Assembly: GCA_964016885.1 (NCBI GenBank)
Contig: OZ024740.1
Coordinates: 29,388,001 to 29,452,000, forward strand
Direction: 5' to 3'
DNA length: 64,000 bases
Source: Eledone cirrhosa
Lineage: Eukaryota
Part shown: positions 1 through 47,630 of the stretch, one piece after another
Position numbering within the stretch: position 1 is the stretch's first letter
How the letters are laid out: each line of letters opens with the position of its first letter
The notes under the pieces: generated by a model
Seen by the model: the letters and a program-made list of their open reading frames with translations, nothing else
Database searches by the model: none
Told to the model about the DNA's origin: nothing
Program-made: the position numbers and the translations under genes

Positions 1-3000
1 ACCTCCAACACTGGGTGATGACACCTCCATCACTGATTCAGGACAACTCCGGGACTGGATCAGGACACTTCCAACACTGAGTGAGGACACCTCTAACACT
101 GGGGGAGGACACCTCCAACACTGGGTGAGGACACCTCCAACACTGAGTGAGGACACCTCCAACAATGAGTGAGGACACATCCAACACTGGGTGAGGACAT
201 CTCTAAAGCTGGGTGAGGACACCTCTAACACTGGGTGAGGACACCTCCAACACTGGGTGAGGACACCTCCAGCATTGGGTGAGGACATCTCCAACACTGG
301 GTGAGGACACCTCCAACACTGGGAGATGACACCTCTAACACTGGGTGAGGACACATCCAGCACTGGGTGAGGACACCTCCAACACTGGGTGAGGAGACCT
401 CCAGCATTGGGTGAGGACATCTCCAACACTGGGTGAGGACACCTCCAACACTGGGAGATGACACCTCTAACACTGAGTGAGGGCACATCCAACACTGGGT
501 GAGGACACCTCCAACACTGAGTGAGGACACCTCCAACACTGGGTGAGGACACCTCTAACACTGGGTGAGGACACCTCCAACACTGGGAGAGTACATATCT
601 AACACTGGGTCAGGACACCTCTAAAACTGGGTGAGGACAAATCCAACACTAGCTGAGGACATATCTAACACTGAGTGAGGACACCTCCAGCACTGGGTGA
701 GGACACCTCTAACACTGGGTGAGGACACCTCCAACACTGGGTGAGGACACCTCCAGCACAGGGTGAGGACACCTCCAACGCTGGGTGAGGACACCTCTAA
801 CACTTGGTGAGGACACCTCTAACACTGGGTGAAGACACCTCCAACACTGGGTGAGGACATAACTAACACTGGGTGAGGACACCTCTAACACTGGGTGAAG
901 AGACCTCCAACACTGGGTGAGGACACATCTAACACTGGGTGACGACATCTCCAACACTGAGTGAGGACACCTCCAGCACAGGGTGACGACACCTCCAACG
1001 CTGGGTGAGAACACTTCTAACATAGGGTGAGGACACCTCCAACACTTGGTGAGGACACCTCCAGCACTGGGTGAGGGCACCTCCAACACTGAGTGAGGAC
1101 ACCTCTAACACTAGGTGAAGACACCTCTAAGACTGGGTGAAGGCACATCTAACACTGGGTGAGGACACCTCCAACACTGGGTGAAGACACCTCCAACACT
1201 GGGTGAGGAAACATCCAACACTGTGAGAGCACACCTCCAACATTGAGTGAGGACACCTCTAACACTGGGTAAATACACCTCCAACACTGGGTGAGGACAC
1301 ATCTAACACTGAGTGAAGAAACCTCCAGTACTGGGTGGGGACACCTCCACAGCTGGGTGAGGACATATCTAACACTGTGTGAGGACACCTCTAACACTGG
1401 GTGAGGACACCTCCAACACTGGGTGAGGACACCTCCAGCACAGGGTGAGGACACCTCCAACGCTGGGTGAGGACAGCTCTAACACATGGTGAGGACACCT
1501 CTAACACTGGTTGAAGACATATCTAACACTGGGTGAGGAAACCTCCAGTACTGGGTGGGGACACCTCCAGCACTGGGTGAAGACATATCTAACACTGGGT
1601 GAGGAAATCTCCAATACTGGGTGAGGAAATCTCCAACACTGGGTGAGGACACCTCCAGCACAGGGTGAGGACACATCCAACGCTGGTTGAGGACACTTCT
1701 AACACTTGGTGACGACACCTCCAGCACTGGGTGAGGGCACCTCCAACACTGAGTGAGGACACATCTAACACTGGGTGAGGACACATCTAACACTGAGTGA
1801 GGACACCTCCAGCACTGGGTGAGGGCACCTCCAACACTGAGTGAGGACAACTCTAACACTGGGTGAGGACAACTCAAACACTGGGTGAGGGCACCTCCAA
1901 CACTGAGTGAGGACACCTCTAACACTGGGTGAGGATACCTCTAAAACTGGGTGAGGACACCTCTAACACTGGGTGAGGACACATCTAACACTGGGTGAGG
2001 ACATCTCCAACCCTGAGTGAGGACACCTCCAGCACAGGGTGAAGACACCTCCAACGCTGGGTTAGGACACCAACTTCACTGGGTGAGGACACATCTAACA
2101 CTGGGTGAGAACGCCTCCAACACTGATTGAGGACATCTCCAACACTGAGTGTGGACACCTATAACTCTGGGTGAGGATACCTCCAACACTGGGTGAGGAC
2201 AATTCCAACACTGAGTGAGGACACCTCTAACAATGGGTAAGGACACCTCCAACACTGGGTGAAGACACCTCTAACTCTGGGTGAGGACATCTCTAACAGT
2301 GGGTGAGGACACCTCTAACACTGGGTGAGGACACCTCCAGAACTGGGTGAGGACACATCTAACACTGTGTGAGGACACCTCCAGCACTGGGTGAGGACAC
2401 CTCCAGAACTGAGTGAGGACACGTCTAACACTGGGTGAGGACATCTCTATCACTGCGTAAGGACACCTCTAACACTGGGTGAATACACCTCAAACACTGG
2501 GTGAGGACACCTCCAACACTGGGTGATGACATCTCCAACACTGGGTGAGGACACGTCTAACACTGGGTGAGGATACCTCCAGAACTGACTGAGGACACGT
2601 CCAACAATGGGTGAGGTCATCTCTAACACTGGGTGAGGACACCTCCAACACTGGGTTACGACACCTCTAAAATTGGGTGAGGACACCTCATACACTGAGT
2701 GAGGACACCTCCAACACAGAGTGAGGACACTTCTAACTCTGGGTGAGGAAACCTCCAACACTGGGTGAAGATACCTCTAAGACTGGGTGACGACACATCT
2801 AACACTGGGTGAGGACACCTCCAACACTGGGTGAAGACACCTCCAACACTGGGTGAGGAGACCTCCAACACTGTGTGAGGACACATCCAACACTGTGTGA
2901 AGACACCTCCAACACTGATTGAGGACACTTCTAACACTGGGTAAAGACACCTCCAGCACTGGGCGAGGACACCTCTAACACTGGGTGAGGACACATCTAA

Positions 3001-6000
3001 CACTGGGTGATGATATCTCCAACACTGGTTGAGGACACATATAACATTGAGTGAGGACACCTCCAGCACTGGGTGTGGACACCTCCAGAACAGAGTGAGG
3101 ACACGTCCAACACTGGGTGAGGACATCTCTAACGCTGGGTGAGGACACCTCCAACACTGGGTGAGGACACCTCTAACACTGGGTGAGGACACCTCCAACA
3201 CTGAGTGAGGACACCTCTAACACTGAGTGAGGATACCTCTAACACTGAGTGAGGATACCTCTAACACTGGGTGAGGACACCTCCAGAACAGAGTGGGGAC
3301 ACGTCCAACACTGTGTGGGGCCACCTCCAACACTGAGTGAGGACACATCTAACACTGGGTGAGGACACATCTAACACTGAGTGAGGACAACGCAAACACT
3401 GGGTGAGGACAACTCAAACACTGGGTGAGGGCACCTTCAACACTGAGTAAGGACAACTCTAACACTGGGTGAGGACAACCCCAACACTGGGTGAGAAAAC
3501 CTCTTAAACTGGGTGAGGACACCTCTAACACAGGGTGAGGAGCCCTCCAACACTGGGAGAGGTTATCTAACACTGGGTGAGGACACCTCTAACACTGGGT
3601 GAGGACACTTCCAACACTGGCTGAGGACACATCTAACACTGAGTGAGGACACCTCCAGCTCTGGGTGAGGACACCTCCAACACTGGGTGAGTACACATCT
3701 AACACTGGGTGAGAACACCTCCGAAACTGGGTGAGGACATATCTAACACTGGGTGAGGACACCTCTAACACTGGGTGAGGACACCTCCAGCACTGGGTGA
3801 GGACACCTCCAGCACAGGGTGAGGACACATCTAACACTGAGTGAGGACAACTCTATCACTGGGTGAGGACAACTAAAACACTGGGTAAGGGCACCTCTAA
3901 CACTGAGTGAGGACAACTCTAACACTGGGTGAGGCCAACACCAACACTGGGTGAGGACACCTCTAAAACTGAGTGAGGACACCTCTAACACTGGGTGAGG
4001 ACACATCTAACACTGGGTGAGGACATCTCCAACACTGAGTGAGGACACCTCCAGCACAGGGTGAAGACACCTCCAACGCTAGGTGAGGACACCTCCAACA
4101 CTGGGTGAGGACACATCTAACACTGGGTGGGAACACCTCCAACACTGGGTGAGGACATCTCCAACACTGAGTGAGGACACCTCTAACACTGGGTGAGGAC
4201 ACCTCCAACACTGGGTGAGGACACCTCCAACACTGGTTGAATACACCTCTATCTGTGGGTGAGGACATCTCCAACGCTGGGTGAGAACACCTCTAACACT
4301 GGGTGAGGACACATCTAACACTCGGTGAGGACACCTCTAACACTTGGTGAGGATACCTCTAACACTGGGTGAGGACACCTCCAGCACTGGGAGAGGACAT
4401 ATCTAACACTGGGTGAGGACACCTCCAACACTGAGTGAGGACACCTCTAACACTGGGTGAGAACAACTCCAACACTGTGTGAGGACATATCTAACCCTGG
4501 CTGATGACACCTCTAACACTAGGTGAGGACACCTCCAACACTTAGTGAGGACACATCTAACACTGGGTGAGGACACCTCCAACACTGTGTTAGGACATAT
4601 CTAACACTGGGTGAGGACATCTTCAACACTAGCTGAGGACACATCTAACACTGGGTGAGGCCACCTCTAACACTGAGTGAGATCACCTCCAACATTGCGT
4701 GAGGACATATCTAACACTGGCTGAGGACACATCCAACACTGAGTGAGGACACCTCTAACACTGGGTGAGGACACCTCCAATACTGGGTGAGGACACCTCC
4801 AACACTGAGTGAGGACATATCTAACACTGGGTGAGGACACCTCTAACACTGGGTGAGGACACCTGCAACACTGAATGAAGACACCTCTAACAATGGGTGA
4901 GGACACCACCAACACTGGGTGAGGACACCCCTAACACTGGGTGAGGACACCTCCAACACTGAGTGAGGACACCTCCAACACTGAGTGAGGACACCTCTAA
5001 CACTGGGTGAGGATACCTCTAACACTGGGTGAGGACACCTCCAGCACTGGGTGAGAACATATCTAACACTGGGTGAGGACACCTCCAACACTGAGTGAGG
5101 ACACCTCTAACACTGGGTGAGAACAACTCCAACACTGTGTGAGGACATATCTAACACTGGCTGAGGACACCTCTAACACTAGGTGAGGACACCTCCAACA
5201 CTGGGTGAGGACACATCTAACACTGGGTGAGAACACCTCCAACACTGGGTGAGGACATATCTAACACTGAGTTAGGACACATCCAACACTGAGTGAGGAC
5301 ACCTCTACCACTTGGTGAGGACACTTCCAACACTGAGTGAGGACATATCTAACACTGGGTGAGGACACCTCTAACACTGAGTGAGGGCACCTCCAACACT
5401 GGGTGAGGACACCTCCAACAATGGGTGGAGACACCTCTAACACTGGGTGAGGACACCTCCAACACAGGGTGAGGACACCTCCAACATAGGTGAGTACAGC
5501 TCCAACACAGGGTGAGGACACCTCCAACACTGGGTGAGGACACCTCTAACACTGAGTGAGGACACCTCCAACACTGAGAGAGGGCGCGTCCAACACTGGG
5601 TGAGGACATCTCTAACACTGGTGAGGACATATCTAACACAGGGTGAGGACACCTCCAACAATGGGTGAGGACACCTCTAACACTGGGTGATGACATCTCT
5701 AACAATGGGTAAGGACACCTCCAACACTGAGTGATGACACCTCTAAAACTGTGTGAGGACACCTCCAACACTGGGTGAGGACACCTCCAGCACTGTGTGA
5801 GGACCTCTCCAACACTGGGTGAGGACACCTCCAACACTGGGTGATGACACCTCCAACACTGGGTGAAGACACCTCTAACACTGGGTGAGGACACCTCCAA
5901 CACAGGGTGAGGACACCTCCAACATAGGTTAGTACAGCTCCAACACTGAGTGAGGACACCTCTAACACAGGGTGAGGACACCTCCAACACTGGGTGAGGA

Positions 6001-9000
6001 CACCTCTAACACTGGGTGAGGATACCTCTAATACTGGGTGAGGACACCTCCAACACTGGGTGAGGACACCTCTAACACTGGGTGAGGACACCTCCAACAC
6101 TGGGTGAGGACACCCACAGCAAAGGGTGAGGACACCTCCAACGCTGGGTGAGGACACCTCTAACACTTGGTGAGGACACCTCCAGCACTGGGTGAGGGCA
6201 CCTCCAACACTGGGTGAAGACACCTCTAAGACTGGGTGAAGGCACATCTAACACTGGGTGAGGACACCTCCAACACTGTGTGAAGACACCTCCAACACTG
6301 GGTGAGGAAACATCCAACACTGTGAGAGCACACCTCCAACATTGAGTGAGGACACCTCTAACACTGGGTAAATACACCTCCAACACTGGGTGAGGACACA
6401 TCTAACACTGAGTGAAGAAACCTCCAGTACTGGGTGGGGACACCTCCACAACTGGGTGAGGACATATCTAACACTGGGTGAGGACACCTCTAACACTGGG
6501 TGAGGACACCTCCAACACTGGGTGAGGACACCTCCAGCACAGGGTGAGGTCACCTCCAACGCTGGGTGAGGACAGCTCTAACACATGGTGAGGACACCTC
6601 TAACACTGGTTGAAGACATATCTAACACTGGGTGAGGAAACCTCCAGTACTGGGTGGGGACACCTCCAGCACTGGGTGAAGACATATCTAACACTGGGTG
6701 AGGAAATCTCCAATACTGGGTGAGGAAATCTCCAACACTGGGTGAGGACACCTCCAGCACAGGGTGAGGACACATCCAACGCTGGGTGAGGACACCTCTA
6801 ACACTTGGTGACGACACCTCCAGCACTGGGTGAGGGCACCTCCAACACTGAGTGAGGACACATCTAACACTGGGTGAGGACACATCTAACACTGAGTGAG
6901 GACACATCTAACACTGAGTGAGGACACCTCCAGCACTGGGTGAGGGCACCTCCAACACTGAGTGAGGACAACTCTAACACTGGGTGAGGACAACTCAAAC
7001 ACTGGGTGAGGGCACCTCCAACACTGAGTGAGGACACCTCTAACACTGGGTGAGGACACCTCTAAAACTGGGTGAGGACACCTCTAACACTGGGTGAGGA
7101 CACATCTAACACTGGGTGAGAACGCCTCCAACACTGAGTGAGGACATCTCCAACACTGAGTGTGGACACCTATAACTCTGGGTGAGGATACCTCCAATAC
7201 TGGGTGAGGACAATTCCAACACTGAGTGAGGACACCTCTAACAATGGGTAAGGACATCTCCAACACTGGGTGAAGACACCTCTAACTCTGGGTGAGGATA
7301 TCTCTAACACTGGGTGAGGACACGTCTAACACTGGGTGAGGACACATCTAACACTCGGTGAGGACACCTCTAACACTGGGTGAAGACACCTCTAACACTG
7401 GGTGAGGACACATCTAACACTGTGTGAGGACACCTCCAGCACTGGGGGAGGACACCTCCAGAACTGAGTGAGAACACGTCCAACACTGGGTGAGGACATC
7501 TCTATCACTGTGTGAGGACACCTCTAACACTGTGTGAGGACACCTCCAGAACTGAGTGAGGACACGTCCAACACTGAGTGAGGACACATCTAACACTGTG
7601 TGAGGACACCTCCAGCACTGGGTGAGGACACCTCCAGAACTGAGTGAGGACACGTCCAACACTGGGTGAGGACACGTCTAACACTGGGTGAGGACACCTC
7701 CAGAACTGAGTGAGGACACGTCCAACAATGGGTGAGGTCATCTCTAACACTGGGTGAGGACACCTCGAACACTGGGTTACGACACCTCTAAAATTGGGTG
7801 AGGACTCCTCATTCACTGAGTGAGGACACCTCCAACACAGAGTGAGGACACCTCTAACTCTGGGTGAGGAAACCTCCAACACTGGGTGAAGACACCTCTA
7901 AGACTGGGTGAAGACACATCTAACACTGGGTGAGGACACCTCCAACACTGGGTGAAGACACCTCCAACACTGGGTGAGGACACATCCAACACTGTGTGAG
8001 GACACCTCCAACACTGATTGAGGACACCTCTAACACTGGGTAAAGACACCTCCAACACTGGGCGAGGACACCTCTAACACTGGGTGAGGACACATCTAAC
8101 ACTGGGTGATGATATCTCCAACACTGGTTGAGGACACATCTAACATTGAGTGAGGACACCTCCAGCACTGGGTGAGGACACCTCCAGAACAGAGTGAGGA
8201 CACGTCCAACACTGGGTGAGGACATCTCTAACAGTGGGTGAGGACACCTCCAACACTGAGTGAGGACACCTCTAACACTGAGTGAGGATACCTCTAACAC
8301 TGAGTGAGGATACCTCTAACACTGGGTGAGGACATCTCCAACACTGGGTGAGGACACCTCCAGCACTGGGTGGGGCCACCTCCAACACTGAGTGAGGACA
8401 CATCTAACACTGGGTGAGGACACATCTAACACTGAGTGAGGACAACTCAAACACTGGGTGAGGGCACCTTCAAAACTGAGTAAGGACAACTCTAACACTG
8501 TGTGAGGACAACCCCAACACTGAGTGAGAAAACCCCTAAAACTGGGTGAGGACACCTCTAACACAGGGTGAGGAGCCCTCCAACACTGGGAGAGGTTATC
8601 TAACACTGGGAGAGGACACCTCTAACACTGGGTGAGGACACTTCAAACACTGGCTGAGGACACATCTAACACTGAGTGGGAACACCTCCAGCTCTGGGTG
8701 AGGACACCTCCAACACTGGGTGAGTACACATCTAACACTGGGTGAGAACACCTCCGAAACTGGGTGAGGACACCTCTAACACTGGGTGAGGACACCTCTA
8801 ACACTTGTTCAGGACACCTCAACCACTTGGTAAGAACACCTCCAGCACTGGGTAAGGGCACCTCCAACACTGAGTGAGGACACATCTAACACTGAGTGAG
8901 GACAACTCTATCACTGGGTGAGGACAACTAAAACACTGGGTAAGGGCACCTCTAACACTGAGTGAGGACAACTCTAACACTGGGTGAGGCCAACACCAAC

Positions 9001-12000
9001 ACTGGGTGAGGACACCTCTAAAACTGAGTGAGGACACCTCTAACACTGGGTGAGGACACATCTAACACTGGGTGAGGACATCTCCAACACTGAGTGAGGA
9101 CACCTCCAGCACAGGGTGAAGACACCTCCAACGCTGGGTGAGGACACCTCCAACACTGGGTGAGGACACATCTAACACTGGGTGGGAACACCTCCAACAC
9201 TGGGTGAGGACATCTCCAACACTGAGTGAGGACACCTCTAACACTGGGTGAGGACACCTCCAACACTGGGTGAGGACACCTCCAACACTGGGTGAGGAGA
9301 CTTCCAACACTGTGTGAGGACACATCCAACACTGTGTGAGGACACCTCCAGCACTGGGTGAGAACATATCTAACACTGGGTGAGGACACCTCCAACACTG
9401 AGTGAGGACACCTCTAACACTGGGTGAGAACAACTCCAACACTGTGTGAGGACATATCTAACACTGGCTGAGGACACCTCTAACACTAGGTGAGGACACC
9501 TCCAACACTGGGTGAGGACACATCTAACACTGGGTGAGAACACCTCCAACACTGGGTGAGGACATATCTAACACTGAGTTAGGACACATCCAACACTGAG
9601 TGAGGACACCTCTACCACTTGGTGAGGACACTTCCAACACTGAGTGAGGACATATCTAACACTGGGTGAGGACACCTCTAACACTGAGTGAGGGCACCTC
9701 CAACACTGGGTGAGGACACCTCCAACACTGGGTGGAGACACCTCTAACACTGGGTGAGGACACCTCCAACACAGGGTGAGGACACCTCCAACATAGGTGA
9801 GTACAGCTCCAACACAGGGTGAGGACACCTCCAACACTGAGTGAGGACACCTCCAACACTGAGAGAGGGCGCGTCCAACACTAGGTGAGGACATCTCTAA
9901 CACTGGTGAGGACATATCTAACACAGGGTGAGGACACCTCCAACAATGGGTGAGGACACCTCTAACACTGGGTGATGACATCTCTAACAATGGGTAAGGA
10001 CACCTCCAACACTGAGTGATGACACCTCTAAAACTGTGTGAGGACACCTCCAACACTGGGTGAGGACACCTCCAGCACTGTGTGAGGACCTCTCCAACAC
10101 TGGGTGAGGACACCTCCAACACTGGGTGATGACACCTCCAACACTGGGTGAAGACACCTCTAACACTGTGTGAGGACACCTCCAACACAGGGTGAGGACA
10201 CCTCCAACATAGGTTAGTACAGCTCCAACACTGAGTGAGGACACCTCTAACACAGGGTGAGGACACCTCCAACACTGGGTGAGGACACCTCTAACACTGG
10301 GTGAGGATACCTCTAATACTGGGTGAGGACACCTCCAACACTGGGTGAGGACACCTCTAACACTGGGTGAGGACACCTCCAACACTGGGTGAGGACACCC
10401 ACAGCAAAGGGTGAGGACACCTCCAACGCTGGGTGAGGATACCTCTAACACTTGGTGAGGACACCTCTAACACATGGTGAGGACACCTCCAGCACTGGGT
10501 GAGGGCACCTCCAACACAGAGTGAGGACACCTCTAACACTGGGTGAAGACACCTCTAAGACTGGGTGAAGGCACATCTAACACTGGGTGAGGACACCTCC
10601 AACACTGTGTGAAGACACCTCCAACACTGGGTGAGGAAACATCCAACACTGTGAGAGCACACCTCCAACATTGAGTGAGGACACCTCTAACACTGGGTAA
10701 ATACACCTCCAACACTGGGTGAGGACACATCTAACACTGAGTGAAGAAACCTCCAGTACTGGGTGGGGACACCTCCACAACTGGGTGAGGACATATCTAA
10801 CACTGGGTGAGGACACCTCTAACACTGGGTGAGGACACCTCCAACACTGGGTGAGGACACCTCCAGCACAGGGTGAGGACACCTCCAACGCTGGGTGAGG
10901 ACAGCTCTAACACATGGTGAGGACACCTCTAACACTGGTTGAAGACATATCTAACACTGGGTGAGGAAACCTCCAGTACTGGGTGGGGACACCTCCAGCA
11001 CTGGGTGAAGACATATCTAACACTGGGTGAGGAAATCTCCAATACTGGGTGAGGAAATCTGCAACACTGGGTGAGGACACCTCCAGCACAGGGTGAGGAC
11101 ACATCCAACGCTGGGTGAGGACACCTCTAACACTTGGTGACGACACCTCCAGCACTGGGTGAGGGCACCTCCAACACTGAGTGAGGACACATCTAACACT
11201 GGGTGAGGACACATCTAACACTGAGTGAGGACACATCTAACACTGAGTGAGGACACCTCCAGCACTGGGTGAGGGCACCTCCAACACTGAGTGAGGACAA
11301 CTCTAACACTGGGTGAGGACAACTCAAACACTGGGTGAGGGCACCTCCAACACTGAGTGAGGACACCTCAAACACTGGGTGAGGACACCTCTAAAACTGG
11401 GTGAGGACACCTCTAACACTGGGTGAGGACACATCTAACACTGGGTGAGAACGCCTCCAACACTGAGTGAGGACATCTCCAACACTGAGTGTGGACACCT
11501 ATAACTCTGGGTGAGGATACCTCCAATACTGGGTGAGGACAATTCCAACACTGAGTGAGGACACCTCTAACAATGGGTAAGGACACCTCCAACACTGGGT
11601 GAAGACACCTCTAACTCTGGGTGAGGATATCTCTAACACTGGGTGAGGACACGTCTAACACTGGGTGAGGACACATCTAACACTCGGTGAGGACACCTCT
11701 AACACTGGGTGAAGACACCTCTAACACTGGGTGAGGACACATCTAACACTGTGTGAGGACACCTCCAGCACTGGGGGAGGACACCTCCAGAACTGAGTGA
11801 GAACACGTCCAACACTGGGTGAGGACATCTCTATCACTGTGTGAGGACACCTCTAACACTGTGTGAGGACACCTCCAGAACTGAGTGAGGACACGTCCAA
11901 CACTGAGTGAGGACACATCTAACACTGTGTGAGGACACCTCCAGCACTGGGTGAGGACACCTCCAGAACTGAGTGAGGACACGTCCAACATTGGGTGAGG

Positions 12001-15000
12001 ACAACTCTATCACTGCTTGAGGACACCTCTAACACTGGGTGAAGACACCTCTAACACTGGGTGAGGACACCTCCAACACTGGGTGATGACATCTCCAACA
12101 CTGGGTGAGGACACGTCTAACACTGGGTGAGGACACCTCCAGAACTGAGTGAGGACACGTCCAACAATGGGTGAGGTCATCTCTAACACTGGGTGAGGAC
12201 ACCTCGAACACTGGGTTACGACACGTCTAAAATTGGGTGAGGACACCTCATACACTGAGTGAGGACACCTCCAACACAGAGTGAGGACACCTCTAACTCT
12301 GGGTGAGGAAACCTCCAACACTGGGTGAAGACACCTTTAAGACTGGGTGAAGACACATCTAACACTGGGTGAGGACACCTCCAACACTGGGTAAAGACAC
12401 CTCCAACACTGGGTGAGGAGACCTCCAACACTGTGTGAGGACACATCCAACACTGTGTGAGGACACCTCCAACACTGATTGAGGACACCTCTAACACTGG
12501 GTAAAGACACCTCCAACACTGGGCGAGGACACCTCTAACACTGGGTGAGGACACATCTAACACTGGGTGATGATATCTCCAACACTGGTTGAGGACACAT
12601 CTAACATTGTGTGAGGACACCTCCAGCACTGGGTGAGGACACCTCCAGAACAGAGTGAGGACACGTCCAACACTGGGTGAGGACATCTCTAACACTGGGT
12701 GAGGACACCTCCAACACTGAGTGAGGACACCTCTAACACTGAGTGAGGATACCTCTAACACTGAGTGAGGATACCTCTAACACTGGGTGAGGACATCTCC
12801 AACACTGGGTGAGGACACCTCCAGCACTGGGTGGGGCCACCTCCAACACTGAGTGAGGACACATCTAACACTGGGTGAGGACACATCTAACACTGAGTGA
12901 GGACAACTCAAACACTGGGTGAGGGCACCTTCAAAACTGAGTAAGGACAACTCTAACACTGTGTGAGGACAACCCCAACACTGAGTGAGAAAACCTCTAA
13001 AACTGGGTGAGGACACCTCTAACACAGGGTGAGGAGCCCTCCAACACTGGGAGAGGTTATCTAACACTGGGAAAGGACACCTCTAACACTGGGTGAGGAC
13101 ACTTCCAACTCTGGCTGAGGACACATCTAACACTGAGTGGGAACACCTCCAGCTCTGGGTGAGGACACCTCCAACACTGGGTGAGTACACATCTAACACT
13201 GGGTGAGAACACCTCCGAAACTGGGTGAGGACACCTCTAACACTGGGTGAGGACACCTCTAACACTTGTTCAGGACACCTCAACCACTTGGTAAGAACAC
13301 CTCCAGCACTGGGTAAGGGCACCTCCAACACTGAGTGAGGACACATCTAACACTGAGTGAGGACAACTCTATCACTGGGTGAGGACAACTAAAACACTGG
13401 GTAAGGGCACCTCTAACACTGAGTGAGGACAACTCTAACACTGGGTGAGGCCAACACCAACACTGGGTGAGGACACCTCTAAAACTGAGTGAGGACACCT
13501 CTAACACTGGGTGAGGACACATCTAACACTGGGTGAGGACATCTCCAACACTGAGTGAGGACACCTCCAGCACAGGGTGAAGACACCTCCAACGCTGGGT
13601 GAGGACACCTCCAACACTGGGTGAGGACACATATAACACTGGGTGGGAACACCTCCAACACTGGGTGAGGACATCTCCAACACTGAGTGAGGACACCTCT
13701 AACACTGGGTGAGGACACCTCCAACACTGGGTGAGGACACCTCCAACACTGGGTGAATACACCTCTAACTGTGGGTGAGGACATCTCCAACGCTGGGTGA
13801 GAACACCTCTAACACTGGGTGAGGACACATCTAACACTCGGTGAGGACACCTCTAACACTTGGTGAGGATACCTCTAACACTGTGTGAGGACACCTCCAG
13901 CACTGGGAGAGGACATATCAAACACTGGGTGAGGACACCTCCAACACTGAGTGAGGACACCTCTAACACTGGGTGAGAACAACTCCAACACTGTGTGAGG
14001 ACATATCTAACCCTGGCTGATGACACCTCTAACACTAGGTGAGGACACCTCCAACACTTACTGAGGACACATCTAACACTGGGTGAGGACACCTCCAACA
14101 CTGTGTTAGGACATATCTAACACTGGGTGAGGACATCTTCAACACTAGCTGAGGACACATCTAACACTGGGTGAAGCCACCTCTAACACTGAGTGAGATC
14201 ACCTCCAACATTGGGTGAGGACATATCTAACACTGGCTGAGGACACATCCAAGACTGAGTGAGGACACCTCTAACACTGGGTGAGGACACCTCCAATACT
14301 GGGTGAGAACACCTCCAACACTGAGTGAGGACATATCTAACACTGGGTGAGGACACCTCTAACACTGGGTGAGGACACCTGCAACACTGAATGAAGACAC
14401 CTCTAACAATGGGTGAGGACACCACCAACACTGGGTGAGGACACCCCTAACACTGGGTGAGGACACCTCCAACACTGAGTGAGGACACCTCCAACACTGA
14501 GTGAGGACACCTCTAACACTGGGTGAGGATACCTCTAACACTGGGTGAGGACACCTCCAGCACTGGGTGAGAACATATCTAACACTGGGTGAGGACACCT
14601 CCAACACTGAGTGAGGACACCTCTAACACTGGGTGAGAACAACTCCAGCACTGTGTGAGGACATATCTAACACTGGCTGAGGACACCTCTAACACTAGGT
14701 GAGGACACCTCCAACACTGAGTGAGGACACATCTAACACTGGGTGAGAACACCTCCAACACTGGGTGAGGACATATCTAACACTGAGTGAGGACACATCC
14801 AACACTGAGTGAGGACACCTCTACCACTTGGTGAGGACACTTCCAACACTGAGTGAGGACATATCTAACACTGGGTGAGCACACCTCTAACACTGAGTGA
14901 GGGCACCTCCAACACTGGGTGAGGACACCTCCAACACTGGGTGGAGACACCTCTAACACTGGGTGAGGACACCTCCAACACAGGGTGAGGACACCTCCAA

Positions 15001-18000
15001 CATAGGTGAGTACAGCTCCAACACTTAGTGAGGACACCTCTAACACAGGGTGAGGACACCTCCAACACTGGGTGAGGACACCTCTAACACTGAGTGAGGA
15101 CACCTCCAAACACTGAGAGAGGGCGCGTCCAACACTGGGTGAGGACATCTCTAACACTGGTGAGGACATATCTAACACAGGGTGAGGACACCTCCAACAA
15201 TGGGTGAGGACACCTCCAACAATGGGTGAGGACACCTCTAACACTGGGTGAAGACATCTATAACAATGGGTAAGGACACCTCCAACACTGAGTGATGAGA
15301 CCTCTAAAACTGTGTGAGGACACCTCCAACACAGGGTGAGGACACCTCCAGCACTGTGTGAGGACCTCTCCAACACTGGGTGAGGACACCTCCAACACTG
15401 GGTGATGACACCTCCAACACTGGGTGAAGACACCTCTAACACTGGGTGAGGACACCTCCAACACAGGGTGAGGACACCTCCAACATAGGTTAGTACAGCT
15501 CCAACACTGAGTGAGGACACCTCTAACACAGGGTGAGGACACCTCCAACACTGGGTGAGGACACCTCTAACACTGGGTGAGGATACCTCTAACACTGGGT
15601 GAGGACACCTCCAACACTGGGTGAGGACACCTCTAACACTGGGTGAGGATACCTCTAACACTTGTTGAATTCACCTCCACCACTGAGTGAGGACACATCT
15701 AACACTGGGTGAGGACACCTCCAACACTGGGTGAGGACATATCTAACACTGGGTGAGGATACCTCAAACACAGGGTGAGGACACCTCTAACACTGGGTGA
15801 GGACACATCCAACACAGGGTGAGGACACCTCTAACACATGGTGAAGACACCTCCAACACTGGGTGAAGACACCTCTAACTCTGGGTGAGGACACCTCCAG
15901 CACTGGGTGAGGACACATCTAACACTGGGAGGGAACACCTCCAACTCTCGGTGAAGACATATCTAACACTGGGTGAGGACACCTCTAACACTGGATGAGG
16001 ACACCTCCAATATATGGGTGAAGACACCTCTAACACTGGGTGAGGACACCTTTAACACTGAGTGAGGACACCTCTAATACTGGGTGAGAACAACTCCAAC
16101 ACTGTGTGAGGACATATCTAACCCTGGCTGAGGACACCTCTAACACTAGGTGAGGACACCTCCAACACTTAGTGAGGACACATCTAACACTGGGTGAGGA
16201 CACATCCAACACTGTGTGAGGACATATCTGACACTAGGTGAGGACATCTCCAACACTGGGTGAGGACACATCTAACACTGGGTGAGGACACCTCTAACAC
16301 TGGGTGAGAACACCTCCAACACTGGGTGAGAACACCTCTAACACTGGGTGAGGACATATCTAACACTGGCTGAGGACACATACAACACTGAGTGAGGACA
16401 CCTCTAACACTGGGTGAGGACACCTCCAACACTGGGTGAGGACACCTCCAACACTGAGTGAGGACATATCTAACACTGGGTGAGAACACCTCTAACACTG
16501 GGTGAGGACATATCTAACACTGGCTGAGGACACATACAACACTGAGTGAGGACACCTCTAACACTGGGTGAGGACACCTCCGACACTGGGTGAGGACACC
16601 TCCAACACTGAGTGAGGACATATCTAACACTGGGTGAAGACATCTCTAACACTGGGTGAGGACACCTCCAATACTGGTTGAGGACACCTCTAACACTGGG
16701 TGAGGACACCTCCAACACTGAGTGAGGACACTTCTAACACTGGGTGAGGATACCTCTATCACTGGGTGAGGACACCTCCAACACTGAGTGAGGACACTTC
16801 TAACACTGGGTGAGGACACCTCCAACACTGAGTGAGGACACATCTAACACTGGGTGAGGACACCTCCAAAACTGGGTGAGACATATCTAACACTGGGTGA
16901 GGACATCTCCAACACTGGGTGAGGACACATCTAACACTGGTGAGGACACCTCCAACACTGTGTGAGGACATATCTAACGCAGGGTGATGACATCTCCAAC
17001 ACTGGGTGAGGACATCTCTAACACTGGGTAAGGACACCTCCAACACTGGGTGATGACACCTCTAAAACTGGGTGAGGACACCTCCAACACTGGGTGAGGA
17101 CACCTCCAAAACTGAGTGATACACCTCCAACACTGGGTGAAGACACCTCTAACACTGGGTGAGGACACCTCCAACACAGGGTGAAGACACCTCCAACAGT
17201 GGGTGAGGACACCTCCAACACTGAGTGAGGACACCTCTAACACAGGGTGAGGACACCTCCAACACTGGGTGAGGACACCTCTAACACTGGGTGAGGACAC
17301 ATCCAACACTGGGTGAGGACACCTCCAACACTGAGTGAGGGCACCTCCAATACTGGGTGAGGATACCTCAAACACAGGGTGAGACACCTCTAACACTGGG
17401 TGAGGACACCTCTAATTCTGGGTGAAGACACCTCCAACACTGAGTGAGGACACCTCTAACACTGGGTGAGGACACCTCCAACACTGGATGAGGACATATC
17501 TAACACTGGGTGAGGACACCTCTAACACTGGGTGAGGACACTTCCAACACTCTGTGAGGACACCTCCAACTCTGAGTGAGGACACCTCCAGCACTGGGTG
17601 AGGACACATCTAACACTGGGAGGGACCACCTCCAACTCTCGATGAGGACATATCTAACACTGGCTGAGGACACATCCAACACTGAGTGAGGACACCTCTA
17701 ACACTGGGTGAGGTCACCTCCAACACTGGGTGAGGACACCTCCAACACTGAGTGAGGACATATCTAACACTGGGTGAGGATACCTCTAACACTGGGTGAG
17801 GACACCTCCAACACTGAGTGAGGACACTTCTAACACTGGGTGAGAACACCTCCAACACTGGGTGAGAACACCTCCAGTACTGGGTGAGGACATATCTAAC
17901 TCTGGGTGAGGACACCTCCAACACTGAGTGAGGACACCTCTAACACTGTGTGAGAACAACTCCAACACTGTGTGAGGACATATCTAACACTGGCTGAGGA

Positions 18001-18392
18001 CACCTCTAACACTAGGTGAGGACACCTCCAACACTTAGTGAGGACACATCTAACACTGGGTGAGGACACCTCCAACACAGAGTGAGGACATATCTAACAC
18101 TTGGTGAGGACATCTCCAATACTGGGTGAGGACACATCTAATACTGGGTGAGGACACCTCTAACACTGGGTGAGAACACCTCCAACACTGAGTGAGGACA
18201 TATCTAACACTGGGTGAGGACACCTCTAAAACAGGGTGAGGACACCTCCAACACTGGGTGAGGACATATCTAACACTGGGTGAGGTCATCTCCAACACTG
18301 GATGAGGACACATCTAACACTGGGTGAGGACACCTCTAACACTGGGTGAGGACATTTCCAACACTGAGTGAGGACACCTCTAACACTGAGTG
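1..18392. repeat. 22-bp tandem satellite, consensus AACACTGGGTGAGGACACCTCY, roughly 830 units, runs off the left edge
   Basis: Continuous 22-nt periodicity with point variants; abrupt end at ~18392. The minus-strand ORFs are translations of the unit. Confidence 0.98.
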
Positions 18393-30059: not shown

Positions 30060-30110
<51 letters not shown>

Positions 30111-30117
<7 letters not shown>

Positions 30118-30720
30118 CGTAAAATAAGAAAATTTAAAAAAAATTTTTAAAAATTAACTTACTAAAATTTTCACTCCAACTAATTAGTTTCTGCAATGGG
30201 ATAAAGACAGTTACGTAATAAACTGTTGAGAATTCATTGCGTCATCAGGGAGGTCTATTCTCAGCTAAGTCTCCAGGCAATGCGCGGACACTGGGGACTC
30301 ATATAAAAATAATAATAATTCGGTAAATGGAACAGCTAGCGGGGACTGGATTCCATGCACTGAAAATCTCGCTGTCACTGGTCAAATGGTAGATTCTAAA
30401 GAATCAATCACGTGACACTGAGGCTAGTCGGTAGGAGTGGGATGGTAAGATGACAGAAGCCTACTAACACACCAAAAAATTGGTAGTGGTTTTGGCAGGT
30501 TTGCTCGACAAATAAGTGATTTGGAGATAAATATAGAGAATTTAGTATATCTACTAATAGCGTACAGATGTACGCTAATGCCAGCAAATACACAGGTTAC
30601 GTCTTTTATATTATTGTTCTGCATCCTCCTGCATTGAACCACCTAGGTACTATGACATAACCTGTGTATTTGCTGGCATTAGCGTATATCTGTACGCATA
30701 TGTTAGTAGATATACTCAAT

Positions 30721-30722
<2 letters not shown>
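30111..30722. mobile_element. retrozyme/pLTR-like element of the 553-bp family, copy 1
   Basis: Homologous to 46131-47450; left arm 30111-30599, inverted arm 30598-30722; TA-flanked. Confidence 0.85.
30174..30252 (-). ncRNA. type I hammerhead ribozyme, 553-bp family
   Basis: CUCC CUGAUGA CGCAAUG...CAUUGCA GAAA CUAAUUAG UU/GGAG. Confidence 0.85.
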
Positions 30723-30761
<39 letters not shown>

Positions 30762-33945: not shown

Positions 33946-34118
33946 GTTATTCCGGGTTGAATCGGAGGTAACCACAGTAAGTAAGGTACTCAATACATAG
34001 CAGAGTATAACAGTTTTAATATAGATGAGATTCTACAGGACTAGAACTGTTTCATTCATTAGAAATGATTCCTGATGATTTCTAATGAATGAAACAGTTC
34101 TAGCCCTGTAGAATCTCA

Positions 34119-45673: not shown

Positions 45674-46102
45674 TTGAGGAGGGTCATATTGTTGTAATAT
45701 TGCCAGAAATAATAACAGAACACATTCACTGTTTGGTTGGAGTCACAAAATCCCATTAGTCCCTGTAATGAGGTCAAAGGAAAACGAATCCTGGGCTCTT
45801 CAAATATAATATAGAGAAGGTAACACACTAGAGAGTATGTTTATCAAGTTACAGGGAATACCACTAGCGTATGGAACCTCTAAACTAAGACAGGTGATAC
45901 ATTATAATTAAAAATATAAATTAGAATGATGAAAATCCACCTTTAAAATTATATATCACACACGTACAAACTCGGGGAGATTGTTTCGTCAGACAATCAG
46001 TCTTTGGAATGGACTCATCCAGGTTCATACTCGACCTCGACGTATTACCTGATGATTTCTCCCGAATGAAACAGTTCTAGTCCTGTAGAAGCCTTTTCTA
46101 TA

Positions 46103-46133
<31 letters not shown>

Positions 46134-46320
46134 GATAATTTAATATATCTACTAACATAAGCGCACAGATGTACGCTAATGCCAGCAAATACACAGGTTA
46201 TGTCATAGTACCTAGGTGGTTCAATGCAGGAGAATGCAGAACAATAATATAAAAGACGTAAAATAAGAACATTTTTTAAAAAAATTTTTTAAAAAATTAA
46301 CTTACTTACTTAAATTTTCA

Positions 46321-46400
46321 CTCCAACTAATTAGTTTCTGCAATGGGATAAAGACAGTTACGTAATGAACTGTTGAGAATTTCATTGCGTCATCAGGGAG
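46321..46400 (-). ncRNA. type I hammerhead ribozyme, 553-bp family
   Basis: CUCC CUGAUGA CGCAAUG...CAUUGCA GAAA CUAAUUAG UU/GGAG. Confidence 0.88.
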
Positions 46401-47299
46401 GTCATTCTCAGCCGAGTCTCCAGGCGATGCGCGGACACTGGGGACTCATATAAAAATAATAATAATTCGGTAAATGGAACAGCTATCGAGGACTGGATTC
46501 CAGCTACTGAAAATTCTCACTGCCACTGATCATATGGTCGATTCTAAAGAATCAATCACGTGACACAGAGGCTAGTCAGTAGGAATGGGATGGTAAGATG
46601 ACAGGCGCCTACTAACACCCCAAAAAAATTTTAGAAGTGGTTTTGGCAGGTTTGCTCGACAAATCAGTGATTTGGAGATAAATATAGATAATTTAATATA
46701 TCTACTAACATAAGCGCACAGATGTACGCTAATGCCAGCAAATACACAGGTTATGTCATAGTACCTAGGTGGTTCAATGCAGGAGAATGCAGAACAATAA
46801 TATAAAAGACGTAAAATAAGAAAATTTTTTTTTTAATTTTTTTTTAAAAATTAACTTACTTACTTACATTTTCACTCCAACTAATTAGTTTCTGCAATGG
46901 GATAAAGACAGTTCTCCTGCATTGAACCACCTAGGTACTATGACATAACCTGTGTATTTGCTGGCATTAGCGTACATCTGTGCGCTTATGTTAGTAGATA
47001 TATTAAATTATCTATATTTATCTCCAAATCACTGATTTGTCGAGCAAACCTGCCAAAACCACTTCTAAATTTTTTTGGGGGGTGTTAGTAGGCGCCTTTC
47101 ATCTTACCATCCCATTCCTACTGACTAGCCTCTGTGTCACGTGATTGATTCTTTAGAATCGACCATATGATCAGTGGCAGTGAGAATTTTCAGTAGCTGG
47201 AATCCAGTCCTCGATAGCCGTTCCATTTACCGAATTATTATTATTTTTATATGAGTCCCCAGTGTCCGCGCATCGCCTGGAGACTCGGCTGAGAATGAC

Positions 47300-47379
47300 C
47301 TCCCTGATGACGCAATGAAATTCTCAACAGTTCATTACGTAACTGTCTTTATCCCATTGCAGAAACTAATTAGTTGGAG
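47300..47379 (+). ncRNA. type I hammerhead ribozyme, 553-bp family, inverted arm
   Basis: CTCC CTGATGA (47304) ... GAAA (47362) CTAATTAG TT GGAG. Confidence 0.88.
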
Positions 47380-47444
47380 TGAAAATTTAAGTAAGTAAGT
47401 TAATTTTTTTTTTTAATTTTTTTTTTTAATTTTCTTATTTTACG

Positions 47445-47501
<57 letters not shown>

Positions 47502-47505
<4 letters not shown>

Positions 47506-47630
47506 AAAAGAGTTAGGCCCCTGACGGCGAGATCCGGCTGTTTCGCCAGAGCTGTCGAAATGGTCGGAGCTCAGCCGTCGGGATCCTGACTCTTTTCATA
47601 TTACCCACTCTGCAAAATACTAGTATTATC
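47502..47630. mobile_element. inverted island related to 30891 and 53923
   Basis: GAAAAGAGTTAGG...GACGGC inverted against GCCGTC...CTGACTCTTTTC, then ATTACCCACTCT. Confidence 0.6.

Follow-up and report, generated by a model that had tools for sequence, protein, structure and literature searches.

The 553-nt repeat inserted at 46131-47452 of the window (the whole 64,000-nucleotide stretch of DNA analysed here) is, judging from its sequence, quite probably a non-autonomous Penelope-like element, which would be mobilized by a Hydra-like protein of the reverse transcriptase (RT)/GIY-YIG type from an RNA template for which a circular form is slightly favoured. The repeat is a real, young and high-copy element, with 3945 exact matches to its 33-nt cleavage-site motif in the 3.0-Gb genome and 8320 to the motif for sister variants. 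In the preliminary description, retrozyme and Penelope element had been treated as alternatives; the data indicate instead a non-autonomous Penelope-type element, and the family is likely a Penelope-type retrozyme of a kind already known. To this kind, the pairing of two fixed ends in inverted insertions (the A+B rule), a bulged hairpin shared with Penelope elements and arm-Penelope chimeras are useful and testable additions. Fixed starts located beside predicted hairpins that are common to the unit and to Penelope elements would make a poorly understood copying mechanism accessible to experiment.

The insertion and its ribozyme

The insertion consists of two arms flanked on both sides by (TA)n tracts (Table 1). 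A scan of periods 20-759 ranked 553 top for the left arm, as had been described, and between its two passes identity is 95.8% over 236 nt, the differences being one substitution and an A/T tract. The unit has a GC content of 37% and, when circularised, folds at z -6.9 (against 25 shuffles). It contains no RT + GIY-YIG reading frame and, in agreement with the first reading of this DNA, no ORF at all when circularised, the longest stop-free stretch being 89 codons and the longest Met-started one 29.

Table 1. Coordinates of features of the 553-nt family in the window (minus strand, RNA sense of the left arm; plus strand, RNA sense of the right arm)
Feature	Coordinates	Strand	Basis
(TA)n target microsatellite, left flank	46114..46130	.	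sequence
Left arm, ~1.42 turns of the 553-nt unit; outer end is fixed site A	46131..46913	- (RNA sense)	
Tail, ~120 nt from site A to site B, found at one end of inverted insertions	46131..46250	-	
Predicted bulged hairpin directly 3' (RNA sense) of site B; UUC/GAA stem, UU bulge	46220..46241	-	
Second copy of the predicted site-B hairpin	46773-46794	-	
Complete predicted type I hammerhead; stem I, CUGAUGA 46396-46390, long stem II with closing C.A mismatch, GAAA, palindromic stem III, cleavage between 46325 and 46324	46321..46400	-	
AT-rich zone, unit positions 311-339; family inner ends pile up there from the second pass on	46441..46469	-	
Predicted bulged hairpin directly 3' (RNA sense) of site A; CUC/GAG stem, UC bulge	46655..46677	-	
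Second cleavage site, between 46879 and 46878, with ribozyme 3' half only	46875..46913	-	
Inversion junction, 2-nt (TT) microhomology	46912..46913	.	
Inverted right arm, 0.98 turn; outer end is fixed site B	46912..47452	+ (RNA sense)	
(TA)n target microsatellite, right flank	47450..47503	.	
Second family insertion: B-ended arm 30108-30603 and inverted A-ended arm 30597-30733	30108..30733	.	

Both GUU cleavage sites reported earlier are present, on the minus strand. The second pass of the left arm stops at unit position 229, ahead of the CUGAUGA core (260-266), and the site at 46878 is for this reason accompanied by the 3' ribozyme half only. The right arm carries one complete hammerhead (CUGAUGA 47304-47310, cleavage between 47375 and 47376) and a site-A hairpin at 47022-47044. 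Since there is one complete ribozyme per arm, this copy is probably a product of the process and not an efficient source. In contigs of four sequencing runs from one study, the 553-nt family occurs at high depth; no listed piece there covers the whole insertion, and its junction is unsupported in these contigs.

The insertion at 30108-30733 is homologous, as claimed before, with about 90% identity. The ends of the two copies had been described as circularly permuted, which proved to be a misreading. The 30111 copy starts at the TATAAAAGACG point, where the right arm also has its outer end (47452 side), and the inverted arm of the 30111 copy ends at the ATATAGA point. Both insertions thus have the same two ends in flipped order, which means two fixed sites and no free permutation.

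The ribozyme of the left arm, read on the minus strand, consists in order of stem I, CUGAUGA, long stem II, GAAA, palindromic stem III and GUU. Covariation of its stems between subfamilies supports the assignment as a type I hammerhead. Among 17 sequences chosen for diversity, 98.6% of cells pair and 4/13 pairs are changed on both sides, against 34-48% pairing for slid control structures. Stem II, for instance, reads GCAAUG/CAUUGC, GUAAGG/CCUUAC, GAAAGG/CCUUUC or GGAAUG/CAUUCC, depending on subfamily. Rfam gave no match at gathering thresholds, and the ribozyme region, folded as a single strand, did no better than shuffles (z +0.8). In 74/74 distinct sequences stem II is closed by a C.A mismatch; the search motifs partly dictated the A. 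A C.A pair at this position may lower cleavage; a literature search on such a closing pair returned no paper matching all terms. Two complete ribozymes within one arm were found in 26/217 family arms.

Hammerhead-like cores are common repeats in this genome, and the window holds 11 of them. Eight further type I cores (21569-, 24341-, 25245-, 27381+, 31381-, 34072+, 53708+, 55404-, the sign giving the strand) belong to several unrelated TA-flanked repeat families, two of which have two fixed ends and a bulged hairpin. High-depth repeats also lie within or beside the same TA tracts as the insertion. The left one (46040-46110) has a CUGAUGA..GAAA core resembling that at 34072, and the right one (47504-47600) is an imperfect inverted repeat. 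A satellite with a 22-nt unit, present in 837 copies, occupies positions 1-18392 of the window.

Fixed ends and bulged hairpins

Copies of the family were mapped onto the circularised unit in two samples. Sample 1 comprises the 58 regions containing the first 100 listed motif matches on contig C1; 97 arms were kept at an identity of at least 80%, and 4/101 arms below 80% were dropped. Sample 2 is end-anchored and lies outside the sample 1 interval, being drawn from 50 of 121 B matches and 30 of 127 A matches; 79 regions were analysed after one locus (L212) had been dropped as a duplicate of another (L211), and three unclassified arms were dropped as well.

Among the 97 arms of sample 1, 45 have their outer end at B and 43 at A, with 9 unclassified, and a TA-type run lies directly outside 84/88 classified arms. 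Inverted pairs combined one A and one B end in 29/34 cases, the remaining 5 having an unclassified arm, and AA or BB pairs did not occur. Sample 2 gave 45/49 A+B pairs, 1 BB and 3 unclassified. Taking both samples together, 74/75 classifiable inverted insertions follow the A+B rule. Sites A and B are about 120 nt apart and adjoin (TA)n, with the cleavage site ~75 and 195 nt upstream of the two starts; two fixed outer ends of this sort reproduce the Penelope "tail" pattern. Random circular permutation of ends is rejected, the outer ends being sites A and B in both samples. Arms longer than one turn amount to 36/88 in sample 1 and 37/125 in sample 2, and reach up to 3.7 turns. Inner junctions are scattered, with overlaps of mostly 0-3 nt.

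Several peculiarities of individual copies were recorded. In 5/34 and 6/49 inverted pairs (L082, L106, L107, L129, L137 and six end-anchored loci), both arms stop at an identical unit position, forming a near-perfect palindrome, often in AT-rich tracts; such pairs possibly arise by fold-back synthesis. A ends (L120, L111, L083 and others) often have extra (GA)n or short repeated units beside the TA tract, which suggests slippage at initiation. At one locus (L037:5781-8230), the inner end of an A arm adjoins a Helitron-like frame (PF14214).

Each start site has UAU(AU), matching (TA)n, and is followed a few bases 3' by a predicted hairpin of its own. Two stems make up this hairpin, one of them YUC/GAR, and its 3' side has a U-Y bulge. 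The strict pattern matches the circular unit at exactly two places, one following A and the other B, and is absent from the antisense strand; it was defined after viewing five of the sites and later loosened (UA bulge, loop up to 75). Sister subfamilies retain the hairpin with changed inner stems. Five unrelated hammerhead families, both TA ends of which had been mapped, were inspected too, and 3/5 have the hairpin after the inner end, where chance is ~0.009 per 10-nt window; 1 of the five passed the unchanged definition, 2 the loosened one, 1 showed a by-eye variant with a 1-nt bulge and 1 failed. We infer from this arrangement that the hairpin may position the RT. In the main texts consulted and in titles and abstracts of the accessible literature, neither the hairpin nor the A+B rule was found; the supplements of PMC8557442 and PMC11167929 may already show such ribozyme or stem-loop features.

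Candidate partner and template

At two loci an arm of the family is fused to a Penelope element. At L038, an A arm directly adjoins a complete Penelope-like element, with no TA spacer in between. This element ends at TA, has direct repeats of ~1.4 kb and a frame of 820 codons, and carries a hammerhead-like core of its own; both arms at L038 have a tail-type end, an exception to the A+B rule. The other locus, L139, has a B arm fused to a second family (47% amino-acid identity), of which a 5'-truncated copy is present. None of the 13 unpaired arms of the end-anchored set added another such chimera. The two cases are suggestive of a link between the unit and Hydra-like Penelope elements and fall short of proof; similar structures could result from a deletion or a nested insertion.

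The first partner family (P0001) is represented by 84 scored copies, 97-100% identical, many with full frames, and has inverted arms and two fixed TA-flanked ends ~85 nt apart. One of these ends has the strict hairpin, and at the other a form with a UA bulge is recognised by eye. The second family (L139/L319) has the hairpin at both ends, and its intact copies are abundant. Motif inspection of the partner proteins revealed RWT/RWK, DKT, CxCX5C and a C-terminal endonuclease, together with a hammerhead and a (TA)n target. These motifs fit the description of the Hydra clade by Craig et al. (PMC8557442); Pfam gave no match for P0001. Both Hydra-like families of this genome are young, with many intact frames of ~785-821 codons, and related Penelope families together yield >50,000 first-look candidates.

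Homology of the unit to the partner families was not detected (local score 32 against a shuffled mean of 31), and a parent with a homologous pLTR was not found among 30 loci of the first family and 20 of the second. It had been asked earlier whether any copy runs into a Penelope ORF. By tblastn with P0001, no family copy continues in sense into an ORF of its own, either at the sampled loci or beyond unpaired arms. A same-sense neighbour at L101/L171 was considered as a parent and rejected, being a separate element that ends at TA sites; in 1/12 loci examined (of 55 matches) it touched the unit.

The copying cycle that we propose would run as follows. Its source would be a copy in which one arm contains two ribozymes, and the transcript of this copy would be cut twice and circularised. 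A Penelope protein would bind both hairpins on one RNA and nick both strands of a (TA)n tract. Each 3' end would then pair with UAU(AU) near a hairpin and prime cDNA, one at A and one at B; the cDNAs would pass the cleavage junction, stop at variable points and be joined by microhomology into an inverted pair.

Arms longer than one turn, 111 crossings of the cleavage site in sample 2 (against 6/125 arms ending at most 5 nt from it) and the near-identity of turns argue for a continuous, probably circular template. With homopolymer and end zones masked, turns of one insertion differ from each other at 65/7932 (0.8%) and 74/4753 (1.6%) positions and its arms by 0.9% and 1.3%; median divergence between insertions is 7.5% and 5.3%. 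Ten private variants, each confined to one insertion, are found in all its passes. A template continuous across the cleavage site, whether circle or multimer, is thus supported. The preliminary description had proposed just this; continuity speaks for it, and the argument from permuted ends has to be abandoned. A circular RNA is the form that we cautiously prefer.

A linear, uncleaved multimer with its 5' end near unit position 330-340 could instead serve the same element and the same partner; a few long arrays would be its source and the circle would be unnecessary. We regard this as rather unlikely, even though the inner ends provide an argument for it. From the second pass on, they fall at unit positions 300-345 in 7/17 cases of sample 1, against 3/61 on the first pass, in a window picked post hoc; the corresponding numbers in sample 2 are 4/11 and 6/72 (p=0.024), a neighbouring second-pass window being likewise high (12/23). 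At 12 loci with TA-joined ends at 300-345 (leaving out L173 and L174, both already in sample 1), the end is a first-pass one in 2, and the control at unit position 21 gave 4 matches. The pile-up lies ~1.4-1.6 turns in, and stop frequency drops again past ~1.6 turns. As a circle has no fixed end, this counts against a pure circle, and the AT-rich zone of Table 1 is a possible template 5' end. First-pass ends at 300-345 are, against the linear multimer, not elevated. Moreover, the site-A hairpin lies outside the copied A end and inside the next turn, so that a linear template would be expected to cost a lineage one unit per round, yet 30-41% of arms exceed one turn.

Long arrays do exist. One of 19 turns (L031-L034, G000:C3:20669104-20680310) ends at A and includes an inverted arm. 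It is organised in a higher-order pattern of 4 units, in view of which its origin as one rolling-circle product is unsupported; a LINE-like frame of 1156 codons lies upstream. Its existence suits the uncleaved multimer. Its neighbouring units differ at many sites, in contrast to the homogeneous turns of dispersed copies with their few recurrent differences, and this argues against such arrays as the source. At a further locus (L085), successive turns of one arm come from two subfamilies (11 differences in 211 sites), for which template switch, mixed source or nested insertion are suggested readings; a multimeric template would accommodate it. For the Poseidon element of Anolis, Frangieh et al. 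(2024, PMC11167929) also proposed a multi-copy mRNA, and unprocessed RNA predominated in vitro. Mixed use of circular and linear templates is likely.

It is improbable that the template is a linear cleaved monomer, from whose 5' end the RT jumps back to its 3' end or over to that of another molecule and so produces tandem turns without circles. This would account for homogeneous turns, could explain L085 as a jump between two RNAs, and would leave an excess of ends near the cleavage site, at unit positions 185-205, where 13/99 first-pass arms of sample 2 do end; these ends may reflect cleaved linear templates or AT palindromes. Jumps would, however, be expected to leave indels, and the 18-mer across the cleavage site is identical in 103/107 passes (a sample biased by the need for one intact site per region), the other four showing substitutions or one end gap. 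Least probable is an origin of multi-turn arms and their homogeneity at the DNA level, by slippage, unequal crossover or gene conversion acting on insertions of at most one turn: conversion can homogenise neighbours and the 4-unit pattern of the 19-turn array points to later DNA-level duplication or an assembly effect, but arms of 1.0-1.9 turns are common with short overlaps only, haplotype sharing is as close for inverted arms as for tandem turns, and fixed A/B ends with TA flanks require a retrotransposition step regardless.

Within the circular-template model, a more far-reaching version is advanced here tentatively. Two copies of one small hairpin (YUC stem, U-N bulge, GAR) on the same RNA molecule would position Hydra-type proteins and all insertions would be twin-primed at A and B; the 553-nt RNA would be an unrelated parasite that has captured this code, and, with the A hairpin lying outside the copied end, it could persist only via a ribozyme-made circle. 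If true, this would give one model for the Penelope tail, pseudo-LTRs and the role of the hammerhead, and would name the mover enzyme of an animal retrozyme. The 553-nt element offers a small test substrate, with two mapped starts, a shared hairpin and intact candidate partners in the same genome, and its RNA makes partner identity, start-site recognition and circular versus linear template testable.

Comparison with known systems

In L1 twin priming, inverted arms are joined by short microhomology. The 553-nt family differs from it in priming at fixed internal sites and in having no poly(A) tail. A literature search on twin priming in Penelope elements returned no paper matching all terms.

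PAc, the Poseidon element of Anolis studied by Frangieh et al., shares with the family two internal RT starts downstream of the hammerhead, which define the tail, and an AT-rich target that is cut and extended on both strands; its starts are likewise tied to a stem-loop. Uncleaved RNA was the main substrate in vitro, and hammerhead activity was dispensable for PAc (PMC11167929). Its starts lack target homology and are alike on both strands, whereas those of the 553-nt family have UAU(AU) matching (TA)n and hairpins of their own, with one start of each kind in 74/75 classifiable insertions.

With Hydra-clade Penelope-like elements (PMC8557442), the family has in common (TA)n targeting, partial tandems, an inverted 5'-truncated arm, a tail at one end and a canonical hammerhead, and the 553-nt copies indeed display this Penelope structure; the co-inserted proteins share the RW(K), DKT and CxCX5C motifs. 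Craig et al. (2021) called the origin of the tandem and inverted structures and of the tail undefined. The 553-nt unit differs by the absence of an ORF and by a tail of ~120 nt against 30-40, and it is linked to these partners through a short hairpin pattern and not through sequence homology.

Closest are the metazoan non-LTR retrozymes. In the accessible portions of their texts, Cervera and de la Pena (2020, PMC7229834) describe units of 170-400 nt in coral, mussel and axolotl and merely suggest Penelope elements as movers, and Li et al. (2026, 10.64898/2026.07.22.740005) give a unit range of 51-972 bp and propose that animal retrozymes are non-autonomous Penelope sequences. The unit had been thought longer than is typical, which is true of the former range and not of the latter. 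The family shares with metazoan retrozymes a non-coding tandem unit, a type I hammerhead, thousands of copies and a proposed circular RNA copied by Penelope RT. Li et al. call elements active that have at least two consecutive complete hammerheads; here these are restricted to the minority of arms counted above, and the copy at 46131-47452 has one per arm. No pLTR homology of the present unit to a partner was detected in the two families compared. Metazoan retrozymes are described as plain tandems, whereas the 553-nt family forms mostly inverted two-arm insertions with fixed ends.
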